A DNA stretch of 64,000 bases from Acidobacteriota bacterium (lineage in GTDB: Bacteria > Acidobacteriota > Polarisedimenticolia > J045), in assembly GCA_046331425.1 (NCBI GenBank), contig JAXLQU010000013.1:24458-88457 (forward strand). The letters run 5' to 3'. Shown here in pieces: positions 2,425 to 56,499 of the stretch. Below the pieces are notes generated by a model that had not been told where the DNA came from, did not search any database, and saw only the letters and a list, made by a program, of their open reading frames with translations. The first letter of the stretch is position 1, and every line of letters starts with the position of its first letter. The translations under genes and the position numbers were made by a program.

Positions 2425-2952
2425 CTAGCCTCGCGGCACTTCTTCCGTCGTGTGTGCGCCCCATCGAACCAACAGCGGCATGGCGATGGCCCAGATGAGC
2501 GCGACGAGTATCAAGCTAAGTATCGGCGACCGGCCCAACGATATCGCGCCGAGCCCAGCACCCGCAAAGTAGGAAAACGGCGCGGCGATGGCGCCGAGCG
2601 TTGCGGCGAGCACGGGCCTGCCTTTCAAGAACGAGAAACCGAACGGCACCGCGGTGGCGAACATCCCCCACAGGACCGACCACCACGGCGGCATCCAGAC
2701 ACCCGCCAACAGCGGTGTGTTGAGAGAGAGCATTCCTGCCTGGACCAACGCCAGGTCGGCAAACGGGCCGAGCAGCGCGGCAAGCACGCCGAATCGCAGC
2801 GTCGATGTGAAGCGGCCGGAAAGGATGGCGTTGATCAACAGGACAGGAACACCAGCCAGTGCGGCGGCGGTGCTCTGGCCACGAGCCGCGAGCATTGCTA
2901 CGGCGAACCAACCAAGCTGCGCCATGATGATCGACAAGACGCGGCGGATCAT
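2425..2952 (-). CDS. DUF2878 family membrane protein
   Basis: 175 aa, hydrophobic throughout. Its stop abuts the DUF1295 start (2423/2425). Standard member of cfa-associated clusters. Confidence 0.65.
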   Translation of the reverse strand: MIRRVLSIIMAQLGWFAVAMLAARGQSTAAALAGVPVLLINAILSGRFTSTLRFGVLAALLGPFADLALVQAGMLSLNTPLLAGVWMPPWWSVLWGMFATAVPFGFSFLKGRPVLAATLGAIAAPFSYFAGAGLGAISLGRSPILSLILVALIWAIAMPLLVRWGAHTTEEVPRG

Positions 2953-3074
2953 CGCGGCACTGTTTCGTCGTGCGGCCTCGTCATTGCGGCACCGTGCCGT
3001 CGTGCGCTCTGGTCATTGCAGCACCGTGCCGTCGCGCGAGCTTGTCAATGCGGCGTCTTTCGGCGTGGCTCGCA

Positions 3075-3832: not shown

Positions 3833-5148
3833 GGAATGGACTCGGTGATGGCAGTCAGGTCGAGGCCGAAGTAGCGCGTGGCAGCCAAGGCGCTGTCGAC
3901 GCCGTCCTCGTGAAAGCCGTATTTCCAATAGGCGCCGCAGTAGTGGACACGATCGGCGCCGCTGATTTCGGCGTGACGCGCTTGCGCGGCGATTGTTTGC
4001 GGCGTGTACACCGGGTGATGGTAGCGCAGTCGTTTGAGGATCTTGCGTGGGTCGATGCGCTCTTCGCAGTTGAGCGAAACCAACAGCGGCGTCGGGCACG
4101 GGATTGCCTGCAGCAGGTTCATCCAATAGGTCACGGCCACGCGCTCCTGCGCGGCAGCCGGGACGAGGTAGTTCCAACTGGCCCAGGCGCGGCGCGAGCG
4201 CGGCATGAGCGAGGCGTCGGTGTGCAGCGTGACATCGTTGAGCTGGTACGGGATGGCGCCGAGCACCTCGCGCTCCGCTTGGGTTGGGGCACTCAACAGG
4301 GCGAGTGCTTGGTCGCTGTGTGTGGCCAGCACCACGTGATCGAACCGCTCTTCGTCGCCGTTGGCGAACGTAAGTTGCACGTGATCGGAATGGCGGGTGA
4401 CGCGCTGCACCTTGGCTGTGAGACGGATTCGCGCTTGAAACGGTGCGATCAGCGCCTGGACGTAGCGGCGCGAACCGCCCGTTATGAAGCGCCACTGCGG
4501 CGCATTACGTACGTCCAGCACGCCGTGGTGATTGAAAAAGCGCACGAAGTGTCGCGCGGGGAAGTGATTCATCATCTCGGGCGCGGCCGACCAGATCGCT
4601 GCGCCGATCGGCCGTGCGTACTGCTCGATGAACTGCGGTGAGTAGCGGCGGGCGCGGAGATAGTCGGCAAGTCCGGTCGATTCGTCGATTGCCGCGCTGT
4701 CGCTGCCAGGGTTAAGCAGTTCGTGATATTCGCGGCCGAATCGCAGGATGTCGCGCAGCAATCGCCAGAATCGCGGACGCAAGGCGTTGCTTGGTTGTGC
4801 GAATACGCCGCGCAGCGTTTCCCCACCATATTCCAGCCCGACGATCCCGCGGGTGTTGGCGCTGCGCGCGCGGTCATCGCGCACGCTGAAGCTCATCGAT
4901 GTCGCCTGCGACGCCACGCCGAGTGCTCGTAGGAGCGCGATGAAGTTCGGGTACGCGCGCTGATTGAAAACGATGAACCCCGTATCGACGACGTACTGCT
5001 GCCCCTCGACCTCGACGTCCTGCGTGTGCGTGTGCCCGCCCACGTAATCATTCGCCTCGAAAACGGCCAGATCGTGCCGCGCCGCCAACACCCGCGCCGC
5101 CACCAACCCCGAGATCCCCGTCCCCACCACCGCCACCCTCATCCACAC
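3829..5148 (-). CDS. NAD(P)/FAD-dependent oxidoreductase (amine oxidase-like flavoprotein of the cfa cluster)
   Basis: 439 aa. N-terminal Rossmann motif VAVVGTGISGLVAA. Conserved first gene of amine-oxidase/DUF1365/cfa clusters. Confidence 0.85.
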   Translation of the reverse strand: MWMRVAVVGTGISGLVAARVLAARHDLAVFEANDYVGGHTHTQDVEVEGQQYVVDTGFIVFNQRAYPNFIALLRALGVASQATSMSFSVRDDRARSANTRGIVGLEYGGETLRGVFAQPSNALRPRFWRLLRDILRFGREYHELLNPGSDSAAIDESTGLADYLRARRYSPQFIEQYARPIGAAIWSAAPEMMNHFPARHFVRFFNHHGVLDVRNAPQWRFITGGSRRYVQALIAPFQARIRLTAKVQRVTRHSDHVQLTFANGDEERFDHVVLATHSDQALALLSAPTQAEREVLGAIPYQLNDVTLHTDASLMPRSRRAWASWNYLVPAAAQERVAVTYWMNLLQAIPCPTPLLVSLNCEERIDPRKILKRLRYHHPVYTPQTIAAQARHAEISGADRVHYCGAYWKYGFHEDGVDSALAATRYFGLDLTAITESIP

Positions 5149-5166: not shown

Positions 5167-5345
5167 AATCCGGGGACGGTCTACCTAAAGCGCTGTTAGC
5201 CGCGTGCACCTCGTCATAATTCGGGGACGGTCTACCTAAAGCGCTGTTAGCCGCGTGCACCTTGTCACAACGACCGTCGCTCACTCGCGTCGTGAGGTAG
5301 CGGGCTTGTCGGCTTACTCCGCTTTAGGTAAACCGTCCCCGAATT
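5167..5345. repeat. MITE-like element, copy 1, carrying an extra tandem left-end half copy
   Basis: A 51-bp direct tandem: 5167-5216 (aatccggggacggtctacctaaagcgctgttagccgcgtgcacctcgtca) and 5218-5267. TIR-L 5218-5243 (aattcggggacggtctacctaaagcg) is the reverse complement of TIR-R 5320-5345 (cgctttaggtaaaccgtccccgaatt). Confidence 0.7.
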
Positions 5346-13564: not shown

Positions 13565-14298
13565 TCCACTCGCACGGACCGGTGCTGGTGATTGCCGCGC
13601 ATCCCGACGACGAAGTGCTCGGCTGCGGCGGCACCATCGCGCGCCTCGCTGCCGAGGGGCGCGATGTACAGATTGCGATTTTGGTGGAGGGGCTCACCTC
13701 TCGCGATGATCAACGCGACGCCGCCAAGCACGCAGCCGCACTGGCCGAGCTGCGCGCCACCGCGCAGCGTGTCGCCACATCGCTCGGCGCGCGAGCACTT
13801 CACACCTTCGGCCTCCCCGACAACCGGCTCGACACCGTACCGATGCTCGATGTCGTCAAGATCTGCGAATCACTGATCGAGACGATTCAACCCAGCGTGA
13901 TCTTCACGCACCACGCCGGCGATTTGAACGTCGATCACCGCGTCATTTCGCAAGCGGTGCTCACCGCAACACGGCCGATTGCCTCGCGCCCTGTACTGCA
14001 GGTGATCGCCTTCGAAGTGGCCAGCAGCACCGAGTGGTCGTTCCAACAGATAGCGCCACCATTCAGCCCCAACCTGTTCGTCGACATCGCCGCCACGCTC
14101 CCGCAGAAGATCGCCGCGATGAAGGCGTACGACGGCGAGTACCGCCCGTTCCCTCACCCGCGATCTGCCGAAGCGCTCGAAGCGCAAGCCAAGCGCTGGG
14201 GATCGACCGCGGGCCTGATGGCGGCTGAGGCGTTTCAGATTGTGCGCTCGATTGTTCGATGTGAAGTGCTGGCGTCTGCTGCGAGCAACCAGAGTTGA
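13561..14298 (+). CDS. PIG-L/LmbE family N-acetyl-sugar deacetylase
   Basis: 245 aa. VLVIAAHPDDEVLGCGGTIA and HHAGDLNVDHR are the PIG-L zinc-site motifs. ATG 13561 overlaps the previous stop (ATGA). Confidence 0.8.
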   Translation: MIHSHGPVLVIAAHPDDEVLGCGGTIARLAAEGRDVQIAILVEGLTSRDDQRDAAKHAAALAELRATAQRVATSLGARALHTFGLPDNRLDTVPMLDVVKICESLIETIQPSVIFTHHAGDLNVDHRVISQAVLTATRPIASRPVLQVIAFEVASSTEWSFQQIAPPFSPNLFVDIAATLPQKIAAMKAYDGEYRPFPHPRSAEALEAQAKRWGSTAGLMAAEAFQIVRSIVRCEVLASAASNQS

Positions 14299-14304
14299 GT
14301 TGCT

Positions 14305-14548
14305 TAGGAGTGAGTCGTCAGGACGTAGGTCCGGCCGTCGTCACGGCGCCTGTTTCGCGGCTCGTCTCTGAGGATTCCGGGATATAGTCTCGTGTCGCTC
14401 TGCCGTGTAAGCAGTCGGACATAGCACGGCGGACAAAACTGCTGCGACGGAAGGAAGACCATGCGGTTGTGGAGCTTCCAATATCTCGCGTGCGAAACGT
14501 CGGTCTTTCTCAGGCCGTCGATTTCCAATTAGGCCGACATGGCATGAG
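14305..14548 (+). repeat. Conserved leader module, copy 1: promoter-like -10, ~160-nt 5' leader and a 23-codon uORF
   Basis: About 75% identical to 19037-19280. GGGATATAGTCT at 14376-14387. uORF ATG 14449 (MRLWSFQYLACETSVFLRPSISN*) preceded by GGAAGGAAG. Ends in TTAGGCCGAC just before ATG 14545. Confidence 0.6.
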
Positions 14549-14975
14549 CCACGAAGTGTTCTTCATTCTGGACGCTTGCTTTCAAGGCGACCTCTGCAAG
14601 CTGTCGCGCAGGGGACATGTTTGGCTGCTCAAGTCGTCAGCAAACGAAGTGCTCGCTCGGTCCGTCTGGAGCCGCGAGACCGAGGACCATTCGCCGGAGC
14701 GCGGGGTAACAACGTTTGACGGCTCGGAGGACTCTCTCGAAGACTTCTACCGTTTTCTGGGCAAGATCGACCTACACCACGGCGAGTACTCGGCGCCCAA
14801 GCCGTGGGATGTTATCCATGTCAGTGGCGTGCCGTTCGACCTCGTGCAGCCTAATCGCATGGCGCAGGAACTCGGGCTCCATGCGATTGTGTCAGAGGTC
14901 GAGGAGCAAGGGTTTGCGATCAGACGAGCCGCCCAACAAGACGATGCACCTGACGGTGCTTCGCACCGCAAGTGA
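14545..14975 (+). CDS. Hypothetical protein downstream of leader module copy 1. The track ORF starts at GTG 14469 inside the conserved module.
   Basis: 143 aa from ATG 14545 (MSHEVFFILDACFQGDL...). No recognisable domain. Start is ambiguous because the upstream in-frame region is conserved at DNA level with copy 2. Confidence 0.4.
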
Positions 14976-15014
14976 TCGCCAAGGCGTTGGACCGAAACGG
15001 AGAGCAGCAGGCAG

Positions 15015-15473
15015 ATGCGTCTTGAAACGGAAGATGGCCTCTCACTCGAGCTTCGAATTCTCGGCTATCAGTTTCCAGACATGCGAACCAACAGTCAGGA
15101 CTCGAACTGGCTCATCATCGAGGGCGAGGTCGCGCATCCGCGCGGCGCCTGGACGTTCCGCGATCCTTGCCTGCTCGCTTACGAGGTGTCCCGACTCGCT
15201 GACTGGCTTGGTTCGCTCGCGCGCGGGACACCCACCTCGGGCGAGAAGAGTTTCATGGAGCCGAACATCAGCTTCAGGTCGGTGGAATCGCCGACGGGGC
15301 CCAACGTTCGCGTTTACTTCGAACTGGAGGCCCGCCCGCCTTGGGCCCCGTCGGACGTCGTGGATGAGGAACAGTGCTGGATCGATTTCCCGGTTTCCGA
15401 GTTGGAGCTCCACAGAGCTGCACTCTCCCTGCTCGATCAGCTGAAGAAATACCCGCAGAGAGCGGCGCAATAA
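15015..15473 (+). CDS. Hypothetical protein (152 aa)
   Basis: ORF with plausible start. No recognised domain. Confidence 0.4.
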   Translation: MRLETEDGLSLELRILGYQFPDMRTNSQDSNWLIIEGEVAHPRGAWTFRDPCLLAYEVSRLADWLGSLARGTPTSGEKSFMEPNISFRSVESPTGPNVRVYFELEARPPWAPSDVVDEEQCWIDFPVSELELHRAALSLLDQLKKYPQRAAQ

Positions 15474-15625
15474 CGGAGGGGTGCGGCCTAGCTCGCCGTT
15501 GCAGTCGGACGGGCGCGTCGGTCGCGGTGCTCCCTCGTGCGCGCGCAGATGAACGGCAGAGCATCGTTCGCCAAGCGAACGTAGCTCGTCGTACCCTACG
15601 CCGTGATCTGCTGGAGGCTGCGTCC

Positions 15626-15841
15626 ATGTCGGGTGAATTCACTGCGGTGTTTGAGCGAGACGGAGAATGGGTTATCGCATTCTGCCCAGAAGTCCCAGGC
15701 GCAAACGGGCAGGGTCCAACCGAAGAAGAAGCCGCTACCAGTTTGGCGGAAGCGATACGACTGATCCTCGAGGACCGACGTGAAGATGGACTCAGAGGAG
15801 TACCTTCCGGCGCAACAATCGGAAAGGTCATGGTCAAGTGA
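15626..15841 (+). CDS. hicB: HicB-family antitoxin (UPF0150 / HicB_lk_antitox domain only)
   Basis: 71 aa. MSGEFTAVFERDGEWVIAFCPEVPGANGQGPTEEEAATSLAEAIRLILE matches the HicB N-terminal domain. ATG 15626. Confidence 0.72.
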   Translation: MSGEFTAVFERDGEWVIAFCPEVPGANGQGPTEEEAATSLAEAIRLILEDRREDGLRGVPSGATIGKVMVK

Positions 15842-16029
15842 AGCGCGGGGATCTGCTGAGGCTCCTTCGGATACACGGTTGCTAGTTGAAACGCGAGGGT
15901 GCCGCGCACTCACTCTGGTGTAACCCTCGAACAGGTTCTGTGGAAGCAGTGCCGAGACATCAAGAGATATCGAATCAGCTTGCACGCAACATCTGTCTCG
16001 GGCTTTCTGTTCTGGAGCCAGGGAGGTGA
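15838..16029 (+). pseudogene. hicA: hicA toxin gene interrupted by an in-frame TAG at 15883-15885
   Basis: GTG 15838 overlaps the hicB stop (GTGA). Translation VKRGDLLRLLRIHGC*LKREGAAHSLWCNPRTGSVEAVPRHQEISNQLARNICLGLSVLEPGR matches the HicA consensus (…GW.L.RqkGSH…PHPKKDL…ILKQAGL) apart from the amber codon at codon 16. Confidence 0.62.
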
Positions 16030-16459
16030 ACACTGCGATGTCGACCCAATGCCTCACACCGGTGGGCCTCGTTGTGCGTGGTGCAACTGGTGCGCTACGC
16101 TCGGCCCGCAGGTTAGGCATGCGTTAGACGCGCGATGGGTCGACGCGGCGCCCACTGCGTTGAGCAGTTGCATACTCCGCGGTGAACTTTCGGAGAAGTC
16201 AGATGACCGAGTCGCTCAAGGACGCATTTCGTGACGCGTCGAAGCCTCCCGGACAAAGTGAAGAACCGCGCTCGTCGCGCTTCTCGTGCGCTGTGAATGA
16301 AAGAAGACGACACGCTGATATGGTTCTGTTCACGGGCACACGACGAGTGCTTGCAGCTCTTGTCCAGCAGGCAAGGCGTCCAGCCACCCGTGCCGCCCGC
16401 CCCGCGGTCCGCAGGTGGGCGAGACTGTTAGGCCTCATGCAACGCACCGAGTACCGCGC

Positions 16460-16801
16460 ATGAAATTCCACTGCGAATGCGGACACACCATCGTTGACGC
16501 CGAAAGCCATTGGGCCAAGGGCCATCTCATCGCTGACGAAGACTACTTCTCGCTACTCGATGCGATCGATGAGGCGGTAGAATCGGGCGGCGCAACTGCC
16601 AAGGAAAAAGAAGCAACCTGCATGAAGGTTCGATCCCTGCACTCCAAGACTATGCGTTCCGCCTGGCAGTGTGATGCGTGTGCTCGCCTCTATATCGACA
16701 TGCCGGACGGCACGCTGCGATGCTTTGTGCCCAGTGACCCGAGTACTGCAAGCGGCGCATTCGCTTCCAGACTGAGGAGATCATCACGTGACGAATCCTG
16801 A
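16460..16801 (+). CDS. Hypothetical small Cys-rich (zinc-ribbon-like) protein
   Basis: MKFHCECGHTIVD…CDACARLYIDMPDGTLRC: paired C/H clusters. No family assigned. Confidence 0.35.
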   Translation: MKFHCECGHTIVDAESHWAKGHLIADEDYFSLLDAIDEAVESGGATAKEKEATCMKVRSLHSKTMRSAWQCDACARLYIDMPDGTLRCFVPSDPSTASGAFASRLRRSSRDES

Positions 16802-17300
16802 ATCGCAGCTTGCCAGCTACTTCGCGAAGTACGAGCCCTCGATAGCCAAGTTTGGAAAGGCGTTGCGCGCGAAGCTGCGTGCTCGCCTGCCCGGCCTGTT
16901 CGAGATCGTCTACGTGTACGAAAACCAGGACGCGCTCGTGATCTCGTACTCTCCAACCAAGTGGGGCCACGAGGGAGTGTGCTCGATCGCGCTCTACCCG
17001 AGTAGCGTGAAGCTGCACTTCGGGCAGGGCGCTTCGTTGTCGAAGTCGGATCCAAACAAGCTGTTGAAAGGCAGCGGCAAGACGGTGCGTCACATCGAGC
17101 TGAACGCGGTCTCGGACTTCGACCGCGCCGAGATAGAGGTGTTGATGGCGGCCGCTTTGAAGCTCGCGAAAGTGAAGCTGGATCCAAGCGCGGAGGGCGA
17201 GGTGATCATCAAAGCGGAGGAACAAAAGCAGCGCGCCGCGAAACGAAAGCAGCCCACCCAGCCGCCACGCGCGAGGCGGAAGAAGCCCGGCGCTGACTAG
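16788..17300 (+). CDS. DUF1801 (YdhG-like) domain protein
   Basis: 170 aa. IALYPSSVKLHFGQGASL…GKTVRHIELN resembles DUF1801. Lys/Arg-rich tail. Confidence 0.65.
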   Translation: MTNPESQLASYFAKYEPSIAKFGKALRAKLRARLPGLFEIVYVYENQDALVISYSPTKWGHEGVCSIALYPSSVKLHFGQGASLSKSDPNKLLKGSGKTVRHIELNAVSDFDRAEIEVLMAAALKLAKVKLDPSAEGEVIIKAEEQKQRAAKRKQPTQPPRARRKKPGAD

Positions 17301-17465
17301 CTGGCCGCGACTGCGATCATGAACTCGTTCGACAGCGGGCTTGATGGCGGCTGAGGCGTTCGAGATTGTCCGCTCGAGCACTCGCTGATGTACCCCCCTT
17401 GACCTGACGCACCGTCCGGGTGTTTAACGTGACGTCGGCCTGCTGCCAGGCGACAGGGGGCGATC

Positions 17466-18272
17466 ATGAAACGTGGACTCGTTGGATTAGTCGTGCTCGC
17501 GGCACTCTTCCCAGTCTCTTGTGCCATCACTAACTACCCAGTCATCACCGACGATCGTGGTGATTTCTCCGGCGTGATTCGGACCGGGCACAAGGCCTAT
17601 ATCCGCCCCGATCCATTCGGCTCGGTAGCCACGGTCTGGTCCGACGGTTCCGAGGAGTTGTTCACGATGGTGTCTCAGAACAACTATGGCGACCAAGTGC
17701 TGTACGGCTTCAACAACTTCGACCCCACGGCTTCCGTGATTTTCTTGGATCAGACCTACTGTGATTGGCGCTACGAAGGCTGCGAGTTCCTCCGCGCATG
17801 GAACCCACATCAGGACAATATCGACGACATCTTTGATTACGAGTACTTTCCAGATTGCTCAGGCGCACGCTCCCTGTCCGACCTCGTCTCCTACTCATCG
17901 CGCCTCGGCGAATGCGGTGACGGACTCTTCGCCGGGAATCAAGACCTGGCAGCAGAGTTTGCCAACCTCGCTACCACCACCTGGCGCGGCGGCACCGCGT
18001 ACATCGTTCCGTGCAACGCGAACACGATGTCGATCACGTTGGATGGCACGCAGCTCCCCATCTACGGGCAAGTCAACAGCATGCTCACGCCCGACCTCAA
18101 CTTCGTGTCGTCGATTACGCCCAACGTGCGCCACTCGCTGCGCTGGCTCTTGAACTGGACCGAGCAACACGGCCCGATCACACCGGCGACCATTCGCTAC
18201 GGCTCGTTCAGCATGGACGTGAGCATCAAGTTCCACGAGGCTGGCATTCGCTACAACCTGAGCCGCTTCTAG
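17466..18272 (+). CDS. Secreted cysteine-rich lipoprotein of unknown function
   Basis: Signal peptide MKRGLVGLVVLAALFPVSCA (lipobox-like). Eight further Cys (CDWRYEGCEF, DCSGA, ECGDG, PCNAN). Confidence 0.55.
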   Translation: MKRGLVGLVVLAALFPVSCAITNYPVITDDRGDFSGVIRTGHKAYIRPDPFGSVATVWSDGSEELFTMVSQNNYGDQVLYGFNNFDPTASVIFLDQTYCDWRYEGCEFLRAWNPHQDNIDDIFDYEYFPDCSGARSLSDLVSYSSRLGECGDGLFAGNQDLAAEFANLATTTWRGGTAYIVPCNANTMSITLDGTQLPIYGQVNSMLTPDLNFVSSITPNVRHSLRWLLNWTEQHGPITPATIRYGSFSMDVSIKFHEAGIRYNLSRF

Positions 18273-18286
18273 ACCGTAGCCGCGAA

Positions 18287-18913
18287 GTGAGCACGCTGTT
18301 CCCGCTGTGGTCGGATCTGCGCCGCCTGAAAGACGAGCGGCAGCTCTTGATCGTTGCCGTTGTCAGCGTGATGGCTCTGTTGCTCCCCTTCTATGCTCCA
18401 ATCCGGCCGACTGCGTTGGGGCGCATGCTGATTGGCTTTGGATTGCCGCTTCTTTCCCTGCCGATTACCGGGATGAGCCTGCGCGACGTCGGCTTCCGTT
18501 TGGGCTCGCCGCGACGATGGCTGCGCGATGTCGGCTTGTTGTATGTGGGCATGCTTCCGTTTCTGTTGCTGCTGACCAAGAGCAGCGCCGTGCGGCGACA
18601 CTACTCGATGAGCAGCACCATCACGAGCGGCGACTTTTGGACTGACCAACTTTGGACGATCGGCACACTGTTGTCTTGGGAGTTTGTCTGCCGCGGCTAC
18701 TTGATGCTGAGTTTCGAGAAGCGCATCGGCGCCGCGGCGCTTGCGGTGCAACTCGTTCCGTTTGTTCTGCTGCACATTGCTAAGCCATTGTCCGAGGTGT
18801 TGGTTGCAGTGCCGTTTGGGATTGTCGCGGGGGTATTGTCGTTGCGCGAACGGAGTTTCTTGCCGGGTGCGGTGCTGCACTCGGCTTTGGCGGTGACGTT
18901 TGCGATGTTTTAG
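18287..18913 (+). CDS. CPBP family intramembrane metalloprotease (CAAX protease / Abi family)
   Basis: Motif 1 SWEFVCRGYL (EExxxR), motif 2 FVLLHIAKP (FxxxH) and motif 3 VLHSALAV. Polytopic. GTG 18287; ATG alternatives lie downstream. Confidence 0.68.
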   Translation: MSTLFPLWSDLRRLKDERQLLIVAVVSVMALLLPFYAPIRPTALGRMLIGFGLPLLSLPITGMSLRDVGFRLGSPRRWLRDVGLLYVGMLPFLLLLTKSSAVRRHYSMSSTITSGDFWTDQLWTIGTLLSWEFVCRGYLMLSFEKRIGAAALAVQLVPFVLLHIAKPLSEVLVAVPFGIVAGVLSLRERSFLPGAVLHSALAVTFAMF

Positions 18914-19036
18914 TTGGGGCGTTGGGTGAGGTTGGGGAATGCGCGATGGTTGATGGACGGTGTCGGCGTTCGGTGCGGCGATTGGTAGATGTGGCGTGTT
19001 GCGATGCGGCGAGAGGATCGGGCGCCGGGATACTTG

Positions 19037-19280
19037 ATGGTGACCCGTCAAGTCAGGAGGCTGGCCCTCGATTCGGCCCCGGGGTCCTGGCTGATTCTCC
19101 CAGGACTTGGGTTATAGTCTGGCGTCGCTCTGCAGCGTAGCCAGCCAGACAAGACGGCGGATAACACCAGAGCGTCGGGGGGAAGTCCATGCGGTTGTGG
19201 AGCTTCCGAAATCTCGAGAAAAACGCGTCGGTCTTTCTCAGTCCGTCGATTTCAGGTTAGGCGGACGAATGCACCGAGAT
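19037..19280 (+). repeat. Conserved leader module, copy 2
   Basis: GGGTTATAGTCT at 19102-19113. uORF ATG 19189 (MRLWSFRNLEKNASVFLSPSISG*) preceded by GGGGGAAG. Ends in TTAGGCGGACGA just before ATG 19269. Confidence 0.6.
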
Positions 19281-19958
19281 GCTGTGAGGCGAGTCAAAGT
19301 TCTGGACGGACTCTACTACTCCTTTCGTTTGCTTGAGTACTTCCACGGCATTCTCTATCCGTCCTGCTGCAGCATCCGGTCGAGCGTAACAGGCCTAGTT
19401 CCTGCCATCGCGTCCGCGTGGGGCTTCATTGACGCACTTCACCGGGCTCGACAGCTGTCTCAACTTGTCCCGGGTCTTGGCCGCCGACATCTCGAACTGC
19501 GCCGATTCCTCGCTGAGACAGAGCTTGCCGAGACTTACCGTCACTATATCCAACACTTGCGACGTGAATTGGCTGACGAATCCGCCCACGATTTTCCCGT
19601 GTGGGGTTCCATCTCGTGGGCTGACCCCGAGGTCCTGACACTGAGTCATACAGCCGTGATTGGAACGGTTCCGCCGGATGTATCCGTCACTATGACAAGC
19701 GCGGTATTCGACTGGGTTGAGAATCGCTGGGTATCTCGGGTCAGCCTTGGAATTCGCGGCTCGGTCTTCAACTTCGACCCCCTATTCCAGGAGGCGCAGA
19801 AGTTTGAGAATTTCGTAGTCCCGTGGATGGCCGAGAAAGGGAACATTGAGCTTGTGTACGGGGACGCGGTCCCGGTCGTGAGTTGCGGTTTCATCATTGG
19901 TGTTGAGCCGCCTAACTCGGCGATGCAGCCGCCGGGCGCTGACGCGCCTGGCGGCTGA
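19269..19958 (+). CDS. Hypothetical protein downstream of leader module copy 2. The frame is open back to 19107.
   Basis: About 229 aa from ATG 19269 (MHRDAVRRVKVLDG...). No recognisable domain. Confidence 0.4.
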   Translation: MHRDAVRRVKVLDGLYYSFRLLEYFHGILYPSCCSIRSSVTGLVPAIASAWGFIDALHRARQLSQLVPGLGRRHLELRRFLAETELAETYRHYIQHLRRELADESAHDFPVWGSISWADPEVLTLSHTAVIGTVPPDVSVTMTSAVFDWVENRWVSRVSLGIRGSVFNFDPLFQEAQKFENFVVPWMAEKGNIELVYGDAVPVVSCGFIIGVEPPNSAMQPPGADAPGG

Positions 19959-19990
19959 TCGCTGCTCGTTCGGCGGCTAGAGTCTCGTGC

Positions 19991-20965
19991 ATGCCTAGAA
20001 CGGCAGGTGTCCTTCCGCGCCATCTGATCAAACACCTAGAGTGGCACCCTAGCACTCGGAGGAGCGCTCGCGTGTATCAATCAGAATTCGAGGAGCGTTC
20101 GTACGAGGCGCCCCTCTACAACCAACTCGAGCGTGCGAACTCCGACATTTACACTCCTGGGCAGGTGCTCGAGAATCGGCTTGGATTTGATCGTGGGTTG
20201 TTCCTCGCGGAGTCAGCGTTGTGGCAGACTCTCGGCTACGATGGCCCGCTCAGAGGCGCTGCATTGGCGTACTACCACTGGCCCGTTGGCTGGGGTCCAC
20301 CACGACCTCGCACTCAGTTGCCCCGGTTCCGTCTGAACCTCTTCCTACAGGCAAAGAGACCTATCTACTACCGGCGGAAGCCTCGCTCTCTGGCGAGTCT
20401 GGATAGGGTCCGCTCGCCGCTATGGGCCTTCCGAGTAACGGGACACCAACAGCGATTGCTCGAAGTCCTTTCTGCGAAGACCCAGGGGCGTGCGCACGTA
20501 GCGTATGCGTCACCGGCGTTCCACACGTACGCCGCGCTCTTCGCTCACACGAAGGGTCGAACCATCGTCGAGAACTCGACCTTTCCATCGGCTGCGGCGC
20601 TGGCCGGCCATGACATGTGGTACTACGACGGACCCGGCGCCAGAGGAGCGGCAAACCCGAATCCGGAGTCGATAGAAGAGCAGCCGCTGCTGACCAGGCT
20701 TCGTGGGCTTGCCAGCGACGCTCCGATCAACGAGGGCGGCGACCTTGCGTGGCTTGACTCCTTGGCCGAGCGAGTGGTGGCCTCGGTAAAAGCAGCTGAA
20801 ACGCCTGTAAACGTCAGTACCGCGCAATTCCTCGACGACCTGCAGACCCTCGATCGGCTGGTGGAGTCCTATGACATTCGACCCAGTCTTCGGGCATACG
20901 CTCAGGTGAGGTTGTTCAGCATTCGCTTCGATCTCAGTTGGCTTGTCCTTGCGCAAGCCGCCTAA
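19991..20965 (+). CDS. Hypothetical protein (324 aa)
   Basis: Long ORF with no competing frame. No domain recognised. Confidence 0.45.
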   Translation: MPRTAGVLPRHLIKHLEWHPSTRRSARVYQSEFEERSYEAPLYNQLERANSDIYTPGQVLENRLGFDRGLFLAESALWQTLGYDGPLRGAALAYYHWPVGWGPPRPRTQLPRFRLNLFLQAKRPIYYRRKPRSLASLDRVRSPLWAFRVTGHQQRLLEVLSAKTQGRAHVAYASPAFHTYAALFAHTKGRTIVENSTFPSAAALAGHDMWYYDGPGARGAANPNPESIEEQPLLTRLRGLASDAPINEGGDLAWLDSLAERVVASVKAAETPVNVSTAQFLDDLQTLDRLVESYDIRPSLRAYAQVRLFSIRFDLSWLVLAQAA

Positions 20966-21099
20966 CTACGCGTGCAGCTGACGCTCAACGTTGATATGAC
21001 TTCGGATGTCAATCGAAGCGCGGCTGTTTCCTATTCGGTGGTTTCCTCCGGTTGAAGCAGGGACGAGCAAGAGGCGGGGCCAGTAATCGCGAGGGTTGA

Positions 21100-22460
21100 T
21101 CCTGCTGATATCCGTGGGTTGGTTACCACCTTACTTGTTTCCGTCGGACGCCTGCCTCGCTCTAGGCACGAGGGTTGGCCGAAGCTGCCTCTCAACGCGT
21201 TCGAGGATTGCGTCAAACCGGGGCCGCGCCTCTCGCTCATCCCTGCTGCTCCGTTCCATTCACTGCCTCACGCTGCAATCGGAACTTGTTTTGCGATCGC
21301 CCACATGTATGCCAGCATCTCGCGCGCGATCGCGGTCACCACGACGTTGGGATGCTTGCCGCCACTGATCAGTCGTCGATATCGTTTGCAGAGTCTCAAC
21401 TGCGCCTTCCATGCGATCGCATGGATCGGCTTTGGAAGTGAATCGATCCGCTTCTGAATGTGCTCGGAGACCTTGGCTGGATAGCGATAAGCCCAGGCCC
21501 CTTCCGTCAGCACACGTTGTACGCGTGAATTGCCCATCTTGGTGTTCCCGCCTTGTCGTCGCCTCTGACCGCTGGAGTGCTCGCTAGGGATCAAGCCGAC
21601 AAACGCCGCCAGTTGTCGCGGCGAGTCGAAGCGCGTCAGATCACCAATCTCGGCGACAGTGGTGACGGCCACGGTCTGTTGGACGCCACGCAGTGCCATC
21701 AACGATTGCACCACCGGATTCAATCGCCAGGTGGGGAGTTGCTCGACCAACTCAGCCTCTAGTCGTTTCAATCGCTCGATCTGCTCGTCGACGGCACGCA
21801 GCATTTCTTGGTACACGATCTGTTGAACCGGCGTGGGGCAAACGACTCGCGCCAAGTAGCGCAGATGCGCTTCATTCCAGCGAGCTTTGCCGGTGTAGTT
21901 CAAACCCAGGCGCAGCAGAAATGACTTCAGTCGACGCCTGGCATTCTTGAGATCGCTCAGCGTCGCCTCGCGGGCGCGTGAGAGATCGCGCATCGCCTCA
22001 TCGTGAACTGACGGCACATAGATCGAGGTGAGATCGCCCGATCGCGCCAAGCGCGCGAGCTCGGTAGCATCGTGCCGGTCGGTCTTGACTCGATCGCCAG
22101 ATTTCTTTGGAATCAGCGAAGGCGCGATCACGCGGCATTCGAAGTTCTTGCCCGTGAGGTAGCGATAGAGCACGTAGCCGCAAGGCCCGGCCTCGTAGAC
22201 AAACACCAACGTCGAGGCCTTGGACTGCAGCCTCCGAATCAGCTTGTCGATGTCGCACTGCCGCGTGCCGATCTGACCGACGAACAGCACCTCGGTCCAC
22301 GGATCGCTCGGGGTATAGGCCACAGCAATCTGATCTTTGTGAACGTCCAAACCGACGAACATCGTGGTAGTTTTCTGCATGGCCGACGTCCGGGATTCAC
22401 CAGTGGCAAACAAACGAGCGTGCGGCTCTGATCTCGATGAGACTAGCCCGCGATTGGTAC
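21100..22460 (-). mobile_element. IS110-family insertion sequence. Ends are approximate because this family has no clear TIRs.
   Basis: Contains a complete IS110/DEDD transposase gene. A partial second copy of its first ~45 codons occurs at 26684-26823. Confidence 0.6.
21268..22380 (-). CDS. IS110 family transposase
   Basis: [22 protein letters not shown] (DEDD_Tnp_IS110 N-terminus) and a C-terminal Transposase_20 region (…[19 protein letters not shown]…). The track ORF extends to 22476 but the family start [11 protein letters not shown] is at about 22380. Confidence 0.85.
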
Positions 22461-22563
22461 CGGGGTCGGCTTGCATCGCTTCCCGAAGTCAGCTTTTCTA
22501 GACGGCAAATAAGTCGTCTTTTAGTTCGAAGGCGGTCACTTTCGTAACGGGAAGGCCTATCAC

Positions 22564-53255: not shown

Positions 53256-54797
53256 TTACTTGAGCGTCTTGACGTTCAGCTGATTCGATGTGGCCGATTC
53301 AGCGCTGTCGCTGTACGAGGTCAACGCAAACGAGTATCGCTTGCCCGGTGACAGCCCGGTGATCTTCCCGCTTGTCGTGTTCGCTGGGAAACTCTGGTGA
53401 AGCGTCCAATCGGTCCCGGTCCAGCGATAGACGTGAAACCCGATCTCACCAGAGGCCCCATCCGACCATCCGACATTCACCGCTCGCCGCGCTCGCTTGT
53501 TGGTGTGCAGGTTCGTCGGCGCGCCGAGTAGCTGGACGGCGCTGCGGAAATTGGCAACCGTCAGCGCGGTGTTGTTGATGGTCTGGTGGTTGTCCCGCTG
53601 CCCAGCGATGCCGGTGGGGGTGCCGAAGTACGAAACGGCCGGGTTACTGAAGTGCGGTGACTTGGGACAGCCCAGCGTGCATTGCGTCGTGTAGGACATG
53701 ATCGTGCGATACGAACCGTCGACGAAGTGGCCGTAGGAGTAGGCGTAACTGGTGCCGCTTCCCGAGTTGGCCGGATCGTGATTGCACCCTTGGTTGTGAC
53801 CGGTCTCGTGGGCCAGCGTCAGGTTGCTCGCAGCACAATCGCGCAACACCACATTGAAGGCGTAGCTGCCGAAGTTGGATTCCACCTGCGTCATCAACCA
53901 ACCGATACCGCAGTACCCGCTGGTGTTGACGATCATCGACACGACGTCGGCGCCGTATTGATTGCGTAGCGCCGCAACGGTGGGATCGTTGGTCAGCCAG
54001 TTGAGGTCGGCGTTGGCATCGCCCGCTTCGGTGTAGGCAATTTCCTCTGTGTGCGCCAAGCGAAGCCGCGTGGTGATCTGGCTGTTGGCGTAGGCGGTGT
54101 TGGTCAAGTCGATCGCGCTTTGAACGGTCGCCTCGATCGCAGCGGTGCCGCCGGCTGCGGCGCGCGCGTCATCGGTGTAGAGGATCAGCATGTCGATGAA
54201 GTCGGCGCTGTCGGAGTAGGCGGTGGTTGGTTCGGCCGCCGCGACGGCGCGTTGTTGCGGTGCCGATACTGGATCGGCGCATTCGCGGAAGCGGTCTTGG
54301 TTGATTTCCGACATCAGGTACTGCCCGGCAGCGACCGGGCGAATCTCGTAGATCTCGCCGTCGGGTGTGTGGATGATGCCGGCGAGCAGCCCTCCACGCA
54401 CACTCAACGTCGCTTCGCCTTCGCGGAGATCGGCGAGCTTGATCGTGCCACGCCAGGTGTAGTCGCTCGCGCCGCGTACCTCGTAGTCGCTGCGTTGAAT
54501 GCGCCAGGTCTTGCCGCTGAAGACATCGACGTCGATCGCGCTGCGCAGCGGATCGAGCGCACTGAAGTCGATCTCGACCGAGCGTTCCCGTAACGCAGCG
54601 CTCGACGGTGTGTAGGACATCTCCCGCAGCGAGGTCATGCCGGAGGAATGAAACAGCGACACTGGCGGAAGCTCTTCAACGTCGCCCGCACGCTTGTCGG
54701 TTTGTGGCGGCAGAGCCCATGCGGCCGACACCAAAGAAACGAGTGCGACAAAGATCTGCCCGGTGCGAACGCATCCGGAGATGTGCGAGCGGTACAT
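53256..54797 (-). CDS. Secreted zinc metalloprotease (metzincin, reprolysin/M12B-like) with C-terminal fibronectin type III domain
   Basis: Signal peptide. HETGHNQGCNHD is HExxHxxGxxHD. C-terminal FHVYRWTGTDWTL…SPGKRYSF (FN3). Confidence 0.7.
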   Translation of the reverse strand: MYRSHISGCVRTGQIFVALVSLVSAAWALPPQTDKRAGDVEELPPVSLFHSSGMTSLREMSYTPSSAALRERSVEIDFSALDPLRSAIDVDVFSGKTWRIQRSDYEVRGASDYTWRGTIKLADLREGEATLSVRGGLLAGIIHTPDGEIYEIRPVAAGQYLMSEINQDRFRECADPVSAPQQRAVAAAEPTTAYSDSADFIDMLILYTDDARAAAGGTAAIEATVQSAIDLTNTAYANSQITTRLRLAHTEEIAYTEAGDANADLNWLTNDPTVAALRNQYGADVVSMIVNTSGYCGIGWLMTQVESNFGSYAFNVVLRDCAASNLTLAHETGHNQGCNHDPANSGSGTSYAYSYGHFVDGSYRTIMSYTTQCTLGCPKSPHFSNPAVSYFGTPTGIAGQRDNHQTINNTALTVANFRSAVQLLGAPTNLHTNKRARRAVNVGWSDGASGEIGFHVYRWTGTDWTLHQSFPANTTSGKITGLSPGKRYSFALTSYSDSAESATSNQLNVKTLK

Positions 54798-54924: not shown

Positions 54925-56499
54925 TTACTTGGTCTTCGCGGTCAACTCGTTGGAGATCGCTGAGAGGCCGGCCCCGTTGAACGCGCGCACGATCAGCGTC
55001 ACCGTTGCTCGTCGTCCCAACCCGGTCACGGTGGTGGTCGTGACGTTGGCGCTCACACTCTTTGCTAGCGTCCAACCGCCCGCCGACCACTTGTACAAGT
55101 TGTAGCCGTTCTCATTCGTGGCATTGTCGTTCCATCTCACTTGCAAGCCGCCGTTGACAGCCGATACCAGCCGCAGTTGAGACGGGAGCCACGGAACTCC
55201 CGACCCGTTCGATCCGCCGCCGCTACTGCCGCCGCCCGTCGTCGTTTGCTGCTTGAAGTTGGCGACGGTCGCGGCGACGTTGTTGAGTACCAAGTGATTG
55301 TCGCGCGCAGTCGCTACGCCTGTCGGGTAACCCGAATAGCTGACAGCCGGATTGGAGAAGTACGGGACGCGGGTGCAGCCAGACGCGCACTGTGAGTTGT
55401 ACGACATCACGGTGCGGAACACGCCGTCGACGAAGTGACCTCTGTTGTACGCATACATCCCGCTGCCGCCTGCGTTGGCAGGGTCGTGATCGCAGCCCAT
55501 GTTGTGACCGGACTCATGCGCCAGCGTCAGGTTCGCCGCCACACATGCGCGCGCCACGACGTTGTAGGCGTTGGGCGCAAAGGCAGTGGTGAGCGAACTC
55601 ATCAAGTACCCAATGCCGCAGTAGTCGCATGACTCCACGACAAACGACACAAGATCGGCTTTGTACTGCTCGCGCAGTGCTGCGATTGTCGTGTCGTTGC
55701 GCACCGCGGTGAGATCGGCCGAGGCGCTGCCGGTTTCGGCGTAGGAGTACTCGCCCTTGTAGACCAATCGCATGCGAGTGGTAACGCCGCTGTTGGCGTA
55801 GGCGGTATTGGCCAAATCGACGGCGCTCTGTACCGTCGCCTCGATTGCAGCGGTGCCGCCGGCGGCAGCCCGCGTGTCGTCGGTGTACAGCACCATGATG
55901 TCGATCGTGCCGTCGCTGTCGTTCATGGCGATCGGTTCGCCTGCAACTTGCGGCGCCATCTCGGAGGAGAGTGGCTCGCGTGGGTCGGCGCATTCACGGA
56001 AGAGATTCGGTGCAAGCTCGGTGAGCAGATGCTTGCCACCGCCAATCGCGCGCAGTTCGTAGGCGTCTCCTTCGGGCGTGTTGATCAAACCGGCCACGGC
56101 GCCGTGATGCACTGTGAAGGTGGCCTCGCCCTGACGACCATCCTCGAGCTGGATGCTGCCGCGCCAGGTGTAGTCGTCTAGATCGCGAATCTCGAGGGTG
56201 CGTCGCTCGGCCACGAACTGCTTGCCGCCCAATAAGGGCAACTGCATGCCGCGGCGCGCCGGATTGAACGCCTCTAGGTCGATGCGAACCATCCGCTCAT
56301 GGATCGCGGCTGGCGAGCTGACGAGCGGCGTGTCGCCTAGCATCTGTGGATCTTCGAGCGCAAACAGCGCTCGAGTTCTGCGTTGCGGATCACGTTCGAA
56401 AGAGTCGGGTGGTAGAGCGAACGCTGCCGATGCTGTCGCGGCTAGTAGAACCGAAAGCGCGCCTCGGCGAACGTATGCGAAGCTGTTTGAGTAGTGCAT
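54925..56499 (-). CDS. Secreted zinc metalloprotease (metzincin, reprolysin/M12B-like) with C-terminal FN3 domain. Paralogue of 53256..54797.
   Basis: HESGHNMGCDHD. Co-linear similarity with the neighbour throughout (…ILYTDDARAAAGGTAAIEATVQSA…). Confidence 0.7.
   Translation of the reverse strand: MHYSNSFAYVRRGALSVLLAATASAAFALPPDSFERDPQRRTRALFALEDPQMLGDTPLVSSPAAIHERMVRIDLEAFNPARRGMQLPLLGGKQFVAERRTLEIRDLDDYTWRGSIQLEDGRQGEATFTVHHGAVAGLINTPEGDAYELRAIGGGKHLLTELAPNLFRECADPREPLSSEMAPQVAGEPIAMNDSDGTIDIMVLYTDDTRAAAGGTAAIEATVQSAVDLANTAYANSGVTTRMRLVYKGEYSYAETGSASADLTAVRNDTTIAALREQYKADLVSFVVESCDYCGIGYLMSSLTTAFAPNAYNVVARACVAANLTLAHESGHNMGCDHDPANAGGSGMYAYNRGHFVDGVFRTVMSYNSQCASGCTRVPYFSNPAVSYSGYPTGVATARDNHLVLNNVAATVANFKQQTTTGGGSSGGGSNGSGVPWLPSQLRLVSAVNGGLQVRWNDNATNENGYNLYKWSAGGWTLAKSVSANVTTTTVTGLGRRATVTLIVRAFNGAGLSAISNELTAKTK

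Follow-up and report, generated by a model that had tools for sequence, protein, structure and literature searches.

A candidate integron-type cassette entry site, present in two copies, at the head of integrase-less cassette arrays in an Acidobacteriota genome

Why would two unrelated genes of one bacterium stand behind the same kind of leader, complete with a short open reading frame (ORF) that ends at the same stop codon in both? The question is raised by a 64,000-nucleotide stretch of an Acidobacteriota genome (GenBank assembly GCA_046331425.1, contig JAXLQU010000013.1, positions 24,458 to 88,457, forward strand; hereafter the window), in which a conserved module of ~280 bp occurs twice. 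The original prediction for this locus, made from the letters alone, favored a leader-peptide attenuator or other cis-regulatory RNA shared by accessory genes and kept a recombination or cassette-exchange module as an alternative. It is the alternative that is supported here, and it can be named. With a probability of about 0.7, the module is an integron-type cassette entry site, an attI-like site combined with a promoter-like element and a coupling ORF, and it heads two cassette arrays that have no integrase. What is new is a conserved, duplicated, integrase-less platform with cassette turnover at the strain level.

The duplicated module and its common end point

The two copies, modules A and B, lie 4.7 kb apart (Table 1). 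They are paralogous, with ~77% identity (77-80% of columns identical in MAFFT alignments), and a profile of the known copies matches only these two places in 64 kb (nhmmer, E = 1e-93 and 1e-96), without a third copy. The duplication of ~240 bp at ~75% identity that had been proposed is therefore borne out, although its limits were drawn too tightly: the homology reaches further left, to ~14262 and ~18980. Module B starts ~66 nt past the stop codon of a CPBP gene, where synteny with module-free relatives ends. The invariant blocks CCATGCGGTTGTGGAGCTTCC, CGTCGGTCTTTCTCAG.CCGTCGATTTC and GGGWTATAGTCT.G.GTCGCTCTGC are each found twice at up to three mismatches, where shuffled sequences are expected to give none. 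Conservation is highest in the ~75 bp before the crossover point (81% between A and B), as compared with 40-76% in 25-nt windows upstream. The attI1 site of class 1 integrons is of comparable size, at ~65 bp.

Two further copies, A' and B', were found in a close relative, an Acidobacteriota metagenome-assembled genome (MAG; contig CAZAHQ010000136.1, represented by locus L013 and then locus L004). This contig is syntenic with the window at ~93% identity, and each of its modules is 91% identical to its window counterpart. Four copies from two strains are known in all, with none outside this lineage in the public collections searched. An exact 19-mer scan of the species genomes of GTDB (one per species) recovered this MAG as the one true relative, the other 12 loci being chance matches. 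A viral scan and a blastn search of plasmids found no copies, and of two metagenome scans one was null and the other gave a single chance match in a methyltransferase gene (L015). The contigs of the same strain (L027-L029) are 99.3-100% identical to the window. By chance, the 3' end of a conserved alphaproteobacterial gene (ending in AMRLWSFRAKPLP with its stop; protein end AMRLWSFR) contains the module core ATGCGGTTGTGGAGCTTCC (19-22 nt) as well, at loci L001, L003, L005, L008 and L011, and such matches can mislead word-based searches for the module.

Where does the module stop? All four copies end at (G/A)TT(A/G)GGC.GA, and unrelated DNA lies beyond. The core sites are GTTAGGC in two copies, GTTGGGC in A' and ATTAGGC in A. 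Past the shared G or A, the sequence reads TTAGGCCGACATGG in A, TTGGGCTGACAAGA in A', TTAGGCGGACGAAT in B and TTAGGCAGAGGAAC in B'. In 25-nt windows, identity falls at this point from 80-92% to 16-40% within 8 nt, whether A is compared with B, A with A' or B with B'. The last two comparisons are between syntenic genomes that are otherwise 93% identical. After module A, the window carries a 143-residue orphan and a WapI-like immunity gene and the relative carries a DUF2442 gene; after module B, the window carries orphans of 229 and 324 residues and the relative carries genes for a DUF2752 membrane protein and a small zinc-ribbon protein. The claim that the genes downstream of the copies are unrelated is thereby upheld.

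At both arrays, the unit of difference between the two genomes is the whole cassette, with breaks at the module core sites and at two further points, between G and TTGATA (20990) and between C and GTTCGMC (15561), where homology between the genomes resumes. Integron integrases cut between G and TT of a core written GTTRRRY (PMC8876359), and the module core GTTAGGC fits that core. The module end TTAGGCsGAC, described earlier as part of a possible leader, is present as described, but it is a recombination core site and no RNA feature. A perfect palindrome stands where homology resumes after the variable part of array A, CGTTCGC-CAA-GCGAACG (15561-15580) in the window and CGTTCG-ACAGG-CGAACG (L013 3513-3532) in the relative; this short sequence may be what is left of a recombination site, or else a small terminator.

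Gene cassettes and attC sites

The variable DNA very probably consists of integron cassettes, with cassettes and attC sites of a known, ordinary kind. The attC sites that end cassettes have the architecture R''-spacer-L''-loop-L'-spacer-R' and fold as a single-strand hairpin (PMC8352920). Three hairpins with this layout and with RYYYAAC and GTTRRRY ends were found, at the ends of cassettes A1 and B1 and of a cassette of the relative. Each is 62-65 nt long and lies directly 3' of a cassette ORF, on the ORF strand. The site of A1 was the sole structured RYYYAAC...GTTRRRY hairpin in a scan of the 64 kb for folding pairs, directly 3' of the 143-residue ORF, and the other two were located by seeking R'' boxes near the remaining boundaries. 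A looser scan for AAC...GTT hairpins was set aside as non-specific, with many matches in GC-rich coding DNA.

The three hairpins, separately found, share 77% mean column identity. Their consensus folds into R and L stems with an internal loop, and the L'' side of the bottom strand bears two single bulges. Extrahelical bases of this type set the polarity of an attC site. The bottom strand of the A1 site is the more stable by 13 kcal/mol (-36.5 against -23.6 kcal/mol for the top strand). The R' box of the B1 site, GTTCGGC, is one base off the consensus, in the portion that goes with the next cassette.

Cassettes that start with TTRRRY complementing their own R'' box bear the footprint of a circular form. 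In the arrays described here, the 3' R'' box complements the cassette's own 5' start at 7/7 positions in B1 (9/10 when extended), where it is the exact complement of the start GTTAGGC, at 7/7 in the cassette behind A', and at 6/7 in both the cassette behind B' and A1. The B1 complement (GTTAGGCGG / CCGCCTAAC) is matched at up to one mismatch in 64 kb only at the two cassette ends of array B, and that of A' (GTTGGGCTG / CAGCCCAAC) has its sole match at this threshold, within the 9-kb contig, at its own cassette. The complementarity fits the two ends having been joined in a circular intermediate. The cargo, too, is typical of chromosomal cassettes, being made up of small, co-oriented genes that include WapI immunity, a ParE-like toxin, DUF2442, DUF2752 and orphans. 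Of the genes that had been named between the copies, the immunity-like small protein was confirmed as WapI-like (Pfam PF24716, E = 1e-32); the supposed hicB has no Pfam match.

A covariance model built from the three hairpins extended the arrays. The shortened site of cassette B2 aligns to it as an attC with its centre deleted (20957-20999, E = 0.047), the orthologue of a degenerate site of array A was matched at L013 4540-4601 (E = 0.088), and weaker attC-like sites in the relative were also picked up. An independent comparison was offered by Supplementary Data 1 of Ghaly et al. (2021; PMC8352920), in which attC covariance models are given for several taxa including Acidobacteria. The profile hidden Markov model that accompanies the Acidobacteria model was rebuilt and is the basis of the profile matches below; it is a sequence-only filter of low information content. 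The published consensus reads GCCUAAC-AacuC-GUUgAAGCg ... cGCUUAAc-UCGagC-GUUAGGC. Its R' box, GTTAGGC, is the same core as the module junction, and the unpaired g of its L'' box (GUU-g-AAGC) lines up with the G that bulges from GAT-G-CAGC in the sites described here.

Across 73 kb, searched on both strands, the eight best matches to the published profile are all found within island DNA, where cassettes are predicted to end, and seven are on the plus strand. The A1 site is among the sites that match the profile. The best match is L013 3996-4081 (E = 0.088) and the second is its window orthologue, 16060-16129 (E = 0.1); the orthologue of the degenerate site was also matched (L013 4569-4602, E = 7.8). 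The module-free relatives gave no match with E below 12. Across 87 kb of control loci, the sole notable matches flank a homologue of the B1 protein in an unrelated genome. This locus (L017 3152-4653; GCA_975303745.1, CDHZTN010000149.1) has the B1 homologue adjoining a HEPN_AbiV gene, with attC-profile matches at 3952-3991 and 4631-4653 on either side. The flanking matches imply that the widespread family of ~212 residues to which B1 belongs travels as an integron cassette, and the family possibly has a defence role.

Array A thus has the A1 site and the two candidates at ~16040-16129 and 16372-16433, and array B has the B1 site and the shortened site of B2. With these sites and no intI, both arrays fall under the definition of attC-site clusters that have no integron-integrase (CALINs).

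The module as an entry site

What is the module at the head of these arrays? It is attI-like in that it is fixed at the array head and ends in the core where the first cassette joins, that is, by its position and its behavior. It is probably a dedicated recombination site. In the proposed mechanism, the last ~75 bp would form an attI-type double-stranded recombination site, and circular cassettes, drawn from a family with the attC consensus GCCTAAC...GTTAGGC, would be inserted between G and TT of (G/A)TTRGGC. The upstream part would supply the promoter-like TATAGT. A short ORF with its own ribosome-binding site would cross the crossover point and stop at the TAG provided by the cassette's TTAGGC, and ribosomes terminating there could reinitiate on the first cassette gene 9-17 nt downstream. 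The recombinase would act in trans from elsewhere in the genome, or would have been active in the past or in donor strains.

The short ORF has a precedent. ORF-11 of attI1 extends across the crossover, has its TAG supplied by the cassette core and boosts translation of the first cassette by termination and reinitiation; ORF-18 arises when the cassette gives no stop, and the peptide sequence matters little there (PMC8876359). At the present locus, the 23-codon ORF described earlier was indeed recovered in both window copies, and it has 23 codons in three of the four copies overall. With GTTGGGC as its core, A' lacks the TAG and has an ORF of 35 codons. The "conserved TAG" also exists in both window copies; its conservation is that of the recombination core, of which the stop is a part, and marks no RNA feature. 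First cassette genes start 9-17 nt past the short-ORF stop in three of four copies, and in A' the extended ORF ends 6 nt before a candidate ATG. (After module A, the in-frame start is the ATG at 14544, and not at 14545 as had been stated.) Between orthologous copies, the alignment reads as one synonymous change, six amino-acid changes and one stop loss; judged from these sequences, the peptide is not conserved as a peptide. By analogy with ORF-11, translational coupling would be a reasonable function.

The Shine-Dalgarno sequence of the short ORF and the promoter-like element had been described correctly. A promoter function is suggested by the conservation of the TATAGT element and by the common orientation of all cassette genes. 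For the promoter and translational-coupling role of the module, the chances are about even. Around the start of the short ORF lies a 27-bp imperfect palindrome that is invariant bar one base in all four copies, and the last ~75 bp of the module hold it together with the direct repeats CGTCGGTCTTTC and CGTCGA-TTTC; that the palindrome or these repeats are binding sites for a protein such as an integrase is conjecture.

Several observations weigh against an integron-type entry site. Known attI sites adjoin intI, and the genes directly upstream of the modules are PIG-L and CPBP. An IntI1 query found no similar tyrosine recombinase in the window (tblastn, nothing better than E = 3.6); among the comparison loci its best match was a 33-residue chance match in an unrelated locus (E = 0.04), and the 10 kb of sequence beyond the right end of the window contained no integrase. 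The module has no recognizable L box and no DR1/DR2 repeats like those of attI1. Since there is no attI consensus for this phylum, or outside a few classes (PMC4889954), the name attI describes position and behavior and not membership by sequence. The core of copy A is ATT and not GTT, a consensus scan found no sigma-70 promoter (-35/-10 pair) in the module, and the comparison spans two strains with four copies in all. On the side of the cassettes, no attC was recognized at the 3' end of the WapI cassette A2, several sites are shortened or degenerate (20960-20996, L013 3488-3524), and matches to the published profile are individually weak (E = 0.09-8), so that the argument from them rests on their positions. 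Homologous exchange between strains already bearing arrays could also swap first cassettes without recombination at the module in this lineage. For the replacement of cassettes at both heads, an integrase acting in trans and homologous exchange with strains bearing the same heads are both possible.

Could the module be a leader RNA after all, an attenuator or riboswitch-like element common to accessory operons, in which the upstream ORF (uORF) senses translation? The uORF has its 23 codons in three copies and the downstream genes are co-oriented with it. The 27-bp palindrome, as a hairpin (GGAAG.CCA/UGGAGCUUCC), could hide the Shine-Dalgarno sequence and AUG of the uORF, and it alone among the predicted hairpins appears in three of four copies as well as in the consensus fold. 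Yet Rfam gave no match at gathering thresholds and noise only at E up to 5, folding z-scores against shuffles were -1.1, -0.7, 0.06 and -1.3 with minimum-energy folds that differ per copy, and compensatory changes were seen in 0 of 29 predicted pairs, a count of low power with four sequences. Neither single-sequence folding of both strands nor RNAalifold lent support to a structured RNA. Nearly all uORF substitutions between orthologues are non-synonymous, one copy is without the stop, the recombination core accounts for the stop where it is kept, and the plus strand has no terminator-like site within or after the module. With no copies outside the lineage in the collections searched either, the predicted attenuator is improbable. 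For attI1 itself, a claim that its leader is a riboswitch has been contested (PMC9410878). A module that codes for an N-terminal segment of the downstream proteins (VELP.SR...VGLSQ.VDF.LG), or for a conserved 23-residue peptide, is hardly credible. In three of four copies no stop interrupts the VELP frame across the module, and ORF prediction would lengthen the genes accordingly, but in A' the frame stops at a TGA directly after ...VDFQLG, ahead of the cargo. The 76 database homologues of B1 align to the cargo part only (52-81% of the query), with 0 of 76 to the module-encoded N-terminus alone; runs of 16-21 invariant bases beside ~50%-identical stretches are unlike codon-wise drift; and the cargo proteins differ wholly between strains. 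The TGA in A' and the B1 homologues without the extension exclude the conserved N-terminal coding region that the original prediction had kept in mind, and together with the non-codon substitution pattern they led to the rejection of a coding region on either strand.

Might the module itself be mobile, as an ORF-less "promoter cassette" or the end of another cargo-bearing element? ORF-less cassettes are known in chromosomal integrons, the module stands near the left end of both insertions described below, and a GTTGGGT lies at 18921, just past the CPBP stop and upstream of module B. Against this, the 3' end of the module has no RYYYAAC box or attC-like hairpin (neither the model built here nor the published one gives a match), the right ends of the two insertions share no sequence with each other or with the modules and have no inverted repeat, the cargo changes while the module stays, and loci with B1 homologues (L016, L017) have no module; this reading is highly improbable. 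The live rival is an origin from secondary sites of the attG type, in which an integrase would have inserted cassettes at a GTT within paralogous intergenic or regulatory sequences that have no dedicated recombination role. Integrases do insert cassettes at many genomic sites, needing ~18 bp around GWT, and this may explain small intI-less arrays (Loot et al., 10.1101/2022.09.11.507474). The ATT core of copy A fits GWT and no intI adjoins. On the other side, cassettes join both paralogues at an identical nucleotide, and at both the first cassette is not the same in close strains, which implies repeated use; the modules are absent where cassettes are absent, so they came with the arrays and not before them; the core matches the full phylum R' consensus GTTAGGC, beyond GWT; and the short ORF is placed as in attI1. 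As with attG sites, the cassettes lie apart from any complete integron, joined at a G(A/T)T with a promoter-like element nearby. Unlike attG sites, which are short, diverse and used once, the modules offer ~280 bp of conserved sequence that is used at the same base, in two paralogues and two strains, for different cassettes. The secondary-site origin is on this evidence unlikely.

How does an integron-type entry site of this form compare with known systems? It shares with class 1 integrons a fixed, non-palindromic site before the first cassette, a crossover at G and TT of the GTTRRRY core and an upstream promoter-like element reading into the cassettes. As with ORF-11 and ORF-18, a short ORF that has a ribosome-binding site of its own reaches across the crossover, ends at a cassette-supplied TAG and lengthens without it. 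It differs from attI1 in having no adjacent intI, no sequence similarity to attI1 and no DR1/DR2 or L box, in a short ORF of 23 rather than 11 codons, and in its two paralogous copies. With sedentary chromosomal integrons, such as those of Xanthomonas and those behind the Acidobacteria attC families (PMC8352920), the arrays share a chromosomal, lineage-specific and fixed position beside core genes, attC sites that are homogeneous within the host, and the R''/R' consensus of the published Acidobacteria model. They differ from these in that no integrase or integrase pseudogene was found beside the array and in being short (~5 and 2-3 cassettes). CALINs are common, are defined without a platform and are said to lack expression from a cassette promoter (Pc), and whether and how their genes are expressed or renewed is not known (PMC4889954). 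In contrast, the clusters described here keep a head that is conserved and duplicated and combines a promoter-like element and a recombination core with a coupling ORF like ORF-11, and cassettes turn over at the head junction.

A stronger form of the proposal is tentative and, on balance, doubtful: that the modules are functional "orphan" attI platforms, two paralogous entry sites with their own promoter and coupling ORF that are served in trans and still gain and lose cassettes. If true, they would amount to an integron spread over several sites and to the first attI type described for Acidobacteriota, and the ORF-11 device of taking a stop from the cassette core would be either ancient or convergent. 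Should an integrase recognize the heads in trans, an integron would not have to be a single contiguous unit, and attI-type sites could be sought in other phyla as conserved non-palindromic sequences that end in GTTRRRY and precede strain-variable cassettes. The locus also carries a lesson for annotation, in that conserved "leaders with a uORF" before unrelated accessory genes can be recombination platforms and not regulatory RNAs.

Origin of the arrays and neighboring features

Four more distant relatives (L018, L019, L021 and L022), found via protein look-ups, share 76-78% nucleotide identity with the window. Their gene order is NeuB, formyltransferase, PIG-L, lipoprotein, CPBP and then a convergent gene with a weak Pfam match to Capsule_synth, and none of the four has the module. 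Relative to them, the window has one insertion at ~14255-17331, between the PIG-L and lipoprotein genes, and a second from 18914 to ~45969, after CPBP. The module sits ~60 nt inside the left end of each. Because these relatives have the core genes PIG-L, lipoprotein and CPBP without the module, the modules must have arrived with the two insertions. The original prediction had the copies framing a 4.7-kb accessory segment; what lies between them is array A (14529 to ~17326) together with the core lipoprotein and CPBP genes, which module-free relatives also have.

Table 1. Positions of the modules, cassettes, attC sites and neighboring features (window coordinates unless a locus is named).
Feature	Position	Strand	Description
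Module A, attI-like platform	14262..14534	+	Ends in core site ATTAGGC (14528-14534); crossover probably between 14528 and 14529
Module B, attI-like platform	18980..19262	+	Ends in core site GTTAGGC (19256-19262); crossover probably between 19256 and 19257
Module A' (orthologue of A)	L013 2706-2993		91% identity to module A
Promoter-like hexamer TATAGT (-10-like)	14383..14388 (module B 19113-19118)	+	Within invariant GGGWTATAGTCT.G.GTCGCTCTG, 4/4 copies
Imperfect palindrome, 27 bp	14453..14479 (module B 19181-19207)	+	GGAAG.CCA-TGCGGTTG-TGGAGCTTCC (N8 centre); covers Shine-Dalgarno and ATG of short ORF
Short ORF A, 23 codons	14461..14532	+	MRLWSFQYLACETSVFLRPSISN; ATG 14461, TAG 14530-14532 (core-site positions 3-5)
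Short ORF B, 23 codons	19189..19260	+	MRLWSFRNLEKNASVFLSPSISG; ATG 19189, TAG 19258-19260, inside GTTAGGC
Cassette A1, 458 bp	14529..14986	+	143-residue orphan ORF (14544-14975) and attC; starts TTAGGC, ends at G of GTTGGAC; position occupied by a different cassette in the close relative
attC of A1	14931..14992	+	GCCCAAC-AAGAC-GATGCAC...GATCGCC-AAGGC-GTTGGAC
Cassette A2	14987..15560	+	WapI-like immunity gene (15015-15473)
Candidate attC, array A	16040..16129	+	Ends GTTAGAC; in part of array A common to relative; folds as long hairpin
Degenerate attC, array A	16372..16433	+	Ends GTTAGGC (16427-16433); weak evidence
Cassette B1, 712 bp	19257..19968	+	Protein of ~224-229 residues (19269-19958); widespread family of ~212 residues
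attC of B1	19910..19974	+	GCCTAAC-TCGGC-GATGCAGCC...GGCTGATCGC-TGCTC-GTTCGGC; -63.5 kcal/mol over 106 nt
Cassette B2	19969..20990	+	324-residue orphan ORF (19991-20965); homology with relative resumes at its end
Shortened attC of B2	20960-20996		GCCTAAC-N23-GTTGATA; at stop codon of second gene
attC at end of relative's cassette	L004 933-996		ACCTAAC...GTTGATA
PIG-L 3' end, left direct-repeat copy flanking insertion A	14203..14261	+	
PIG-L 3' end remnant and native downstream spacer	17327..17414	+	Right boundary of insertion A; 80-90% identical to left copy
Lipoprotein gene (core)	17466-18272		
CPBP gene (core)	18287-18913		
IS110-family (DEDD) transposase gene	21268..22476	-	Element 21034-22560; Pfam PF01548, PF02371; just after array B

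Insertion A is flanked by two copies of the PIG-L 3' end. The right-hand remnant is collinear with the PIG-L/lipoprotein junction of module-free relatives. The modules are paralogous, and probably one old segmental duplication also copied the PIG-L 3' end. The similar divergence of the PIG-L repeat and of the modules suggests a single such event, followed by loss of the first lipoprotein-CPBP copy. In the window (14240-14300, compared with L013 2600-2720), ~95 nt between two GATTGTTCG direct repeats have been lost; the PIG-L stop is gone with them, and the frame reads on for 22 residues into what precedes module A. The relative L013 retains the stop codon and the spacer. In that relative, the gene for a Cys-rich lipoprotein of 268 residues is present as tandem paralogues (L013 5635-6441 and 6501-7307), of which the window has one.

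The second insertion, of 27 kb (18914-45969), is mostly no cassette array. It carries genes for an M20 peptidase, several S-adenosylmethionine methyltransferases, an HTH-WYL-WCX regulator, an S41 peptidase, a LigT-like 2'-5' RNA ligase and an FAD monooxygenase. An integrative island with its own recombinase was considered and rejected, as Pfam searches of the far end of this insertion returned the methyltransferases, WYL regulator, S41 peptidase, LigT and monooxygenase and no recombinase.

The IS110 element that had been placed just downstream was confirmed by both of its Pfam domains. CALINs have been reported to associate with insertion sequences, and an element directly after array B is in line with this. 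Some IS110/IS1111 relatives target attC sites. The element is probably multi-copy, since two further assemblies of this strain are broken within it. Its transposase gene lies 2 kb from the module, on the other strand, and no link of the module to an IS110 bridge RNA was seen.

Other repeats were noted in the window. An intergenic region upstream of an aminotransferase gene has, at 5167-5345, a tandem pair of 51-nt repeats (94% identical) and after it an inverted copy (89% complementary). Three tandem 32-nt repeats, 72-78% identical, lie at 2949-3044. A 300-nt direct repeat of 70% identity (53891-54190 and 55599-55898) probably reflects two paralogous reprolysin-type metalloprotease genes, as indicated by the Pfam families of the same-strain locus L026.

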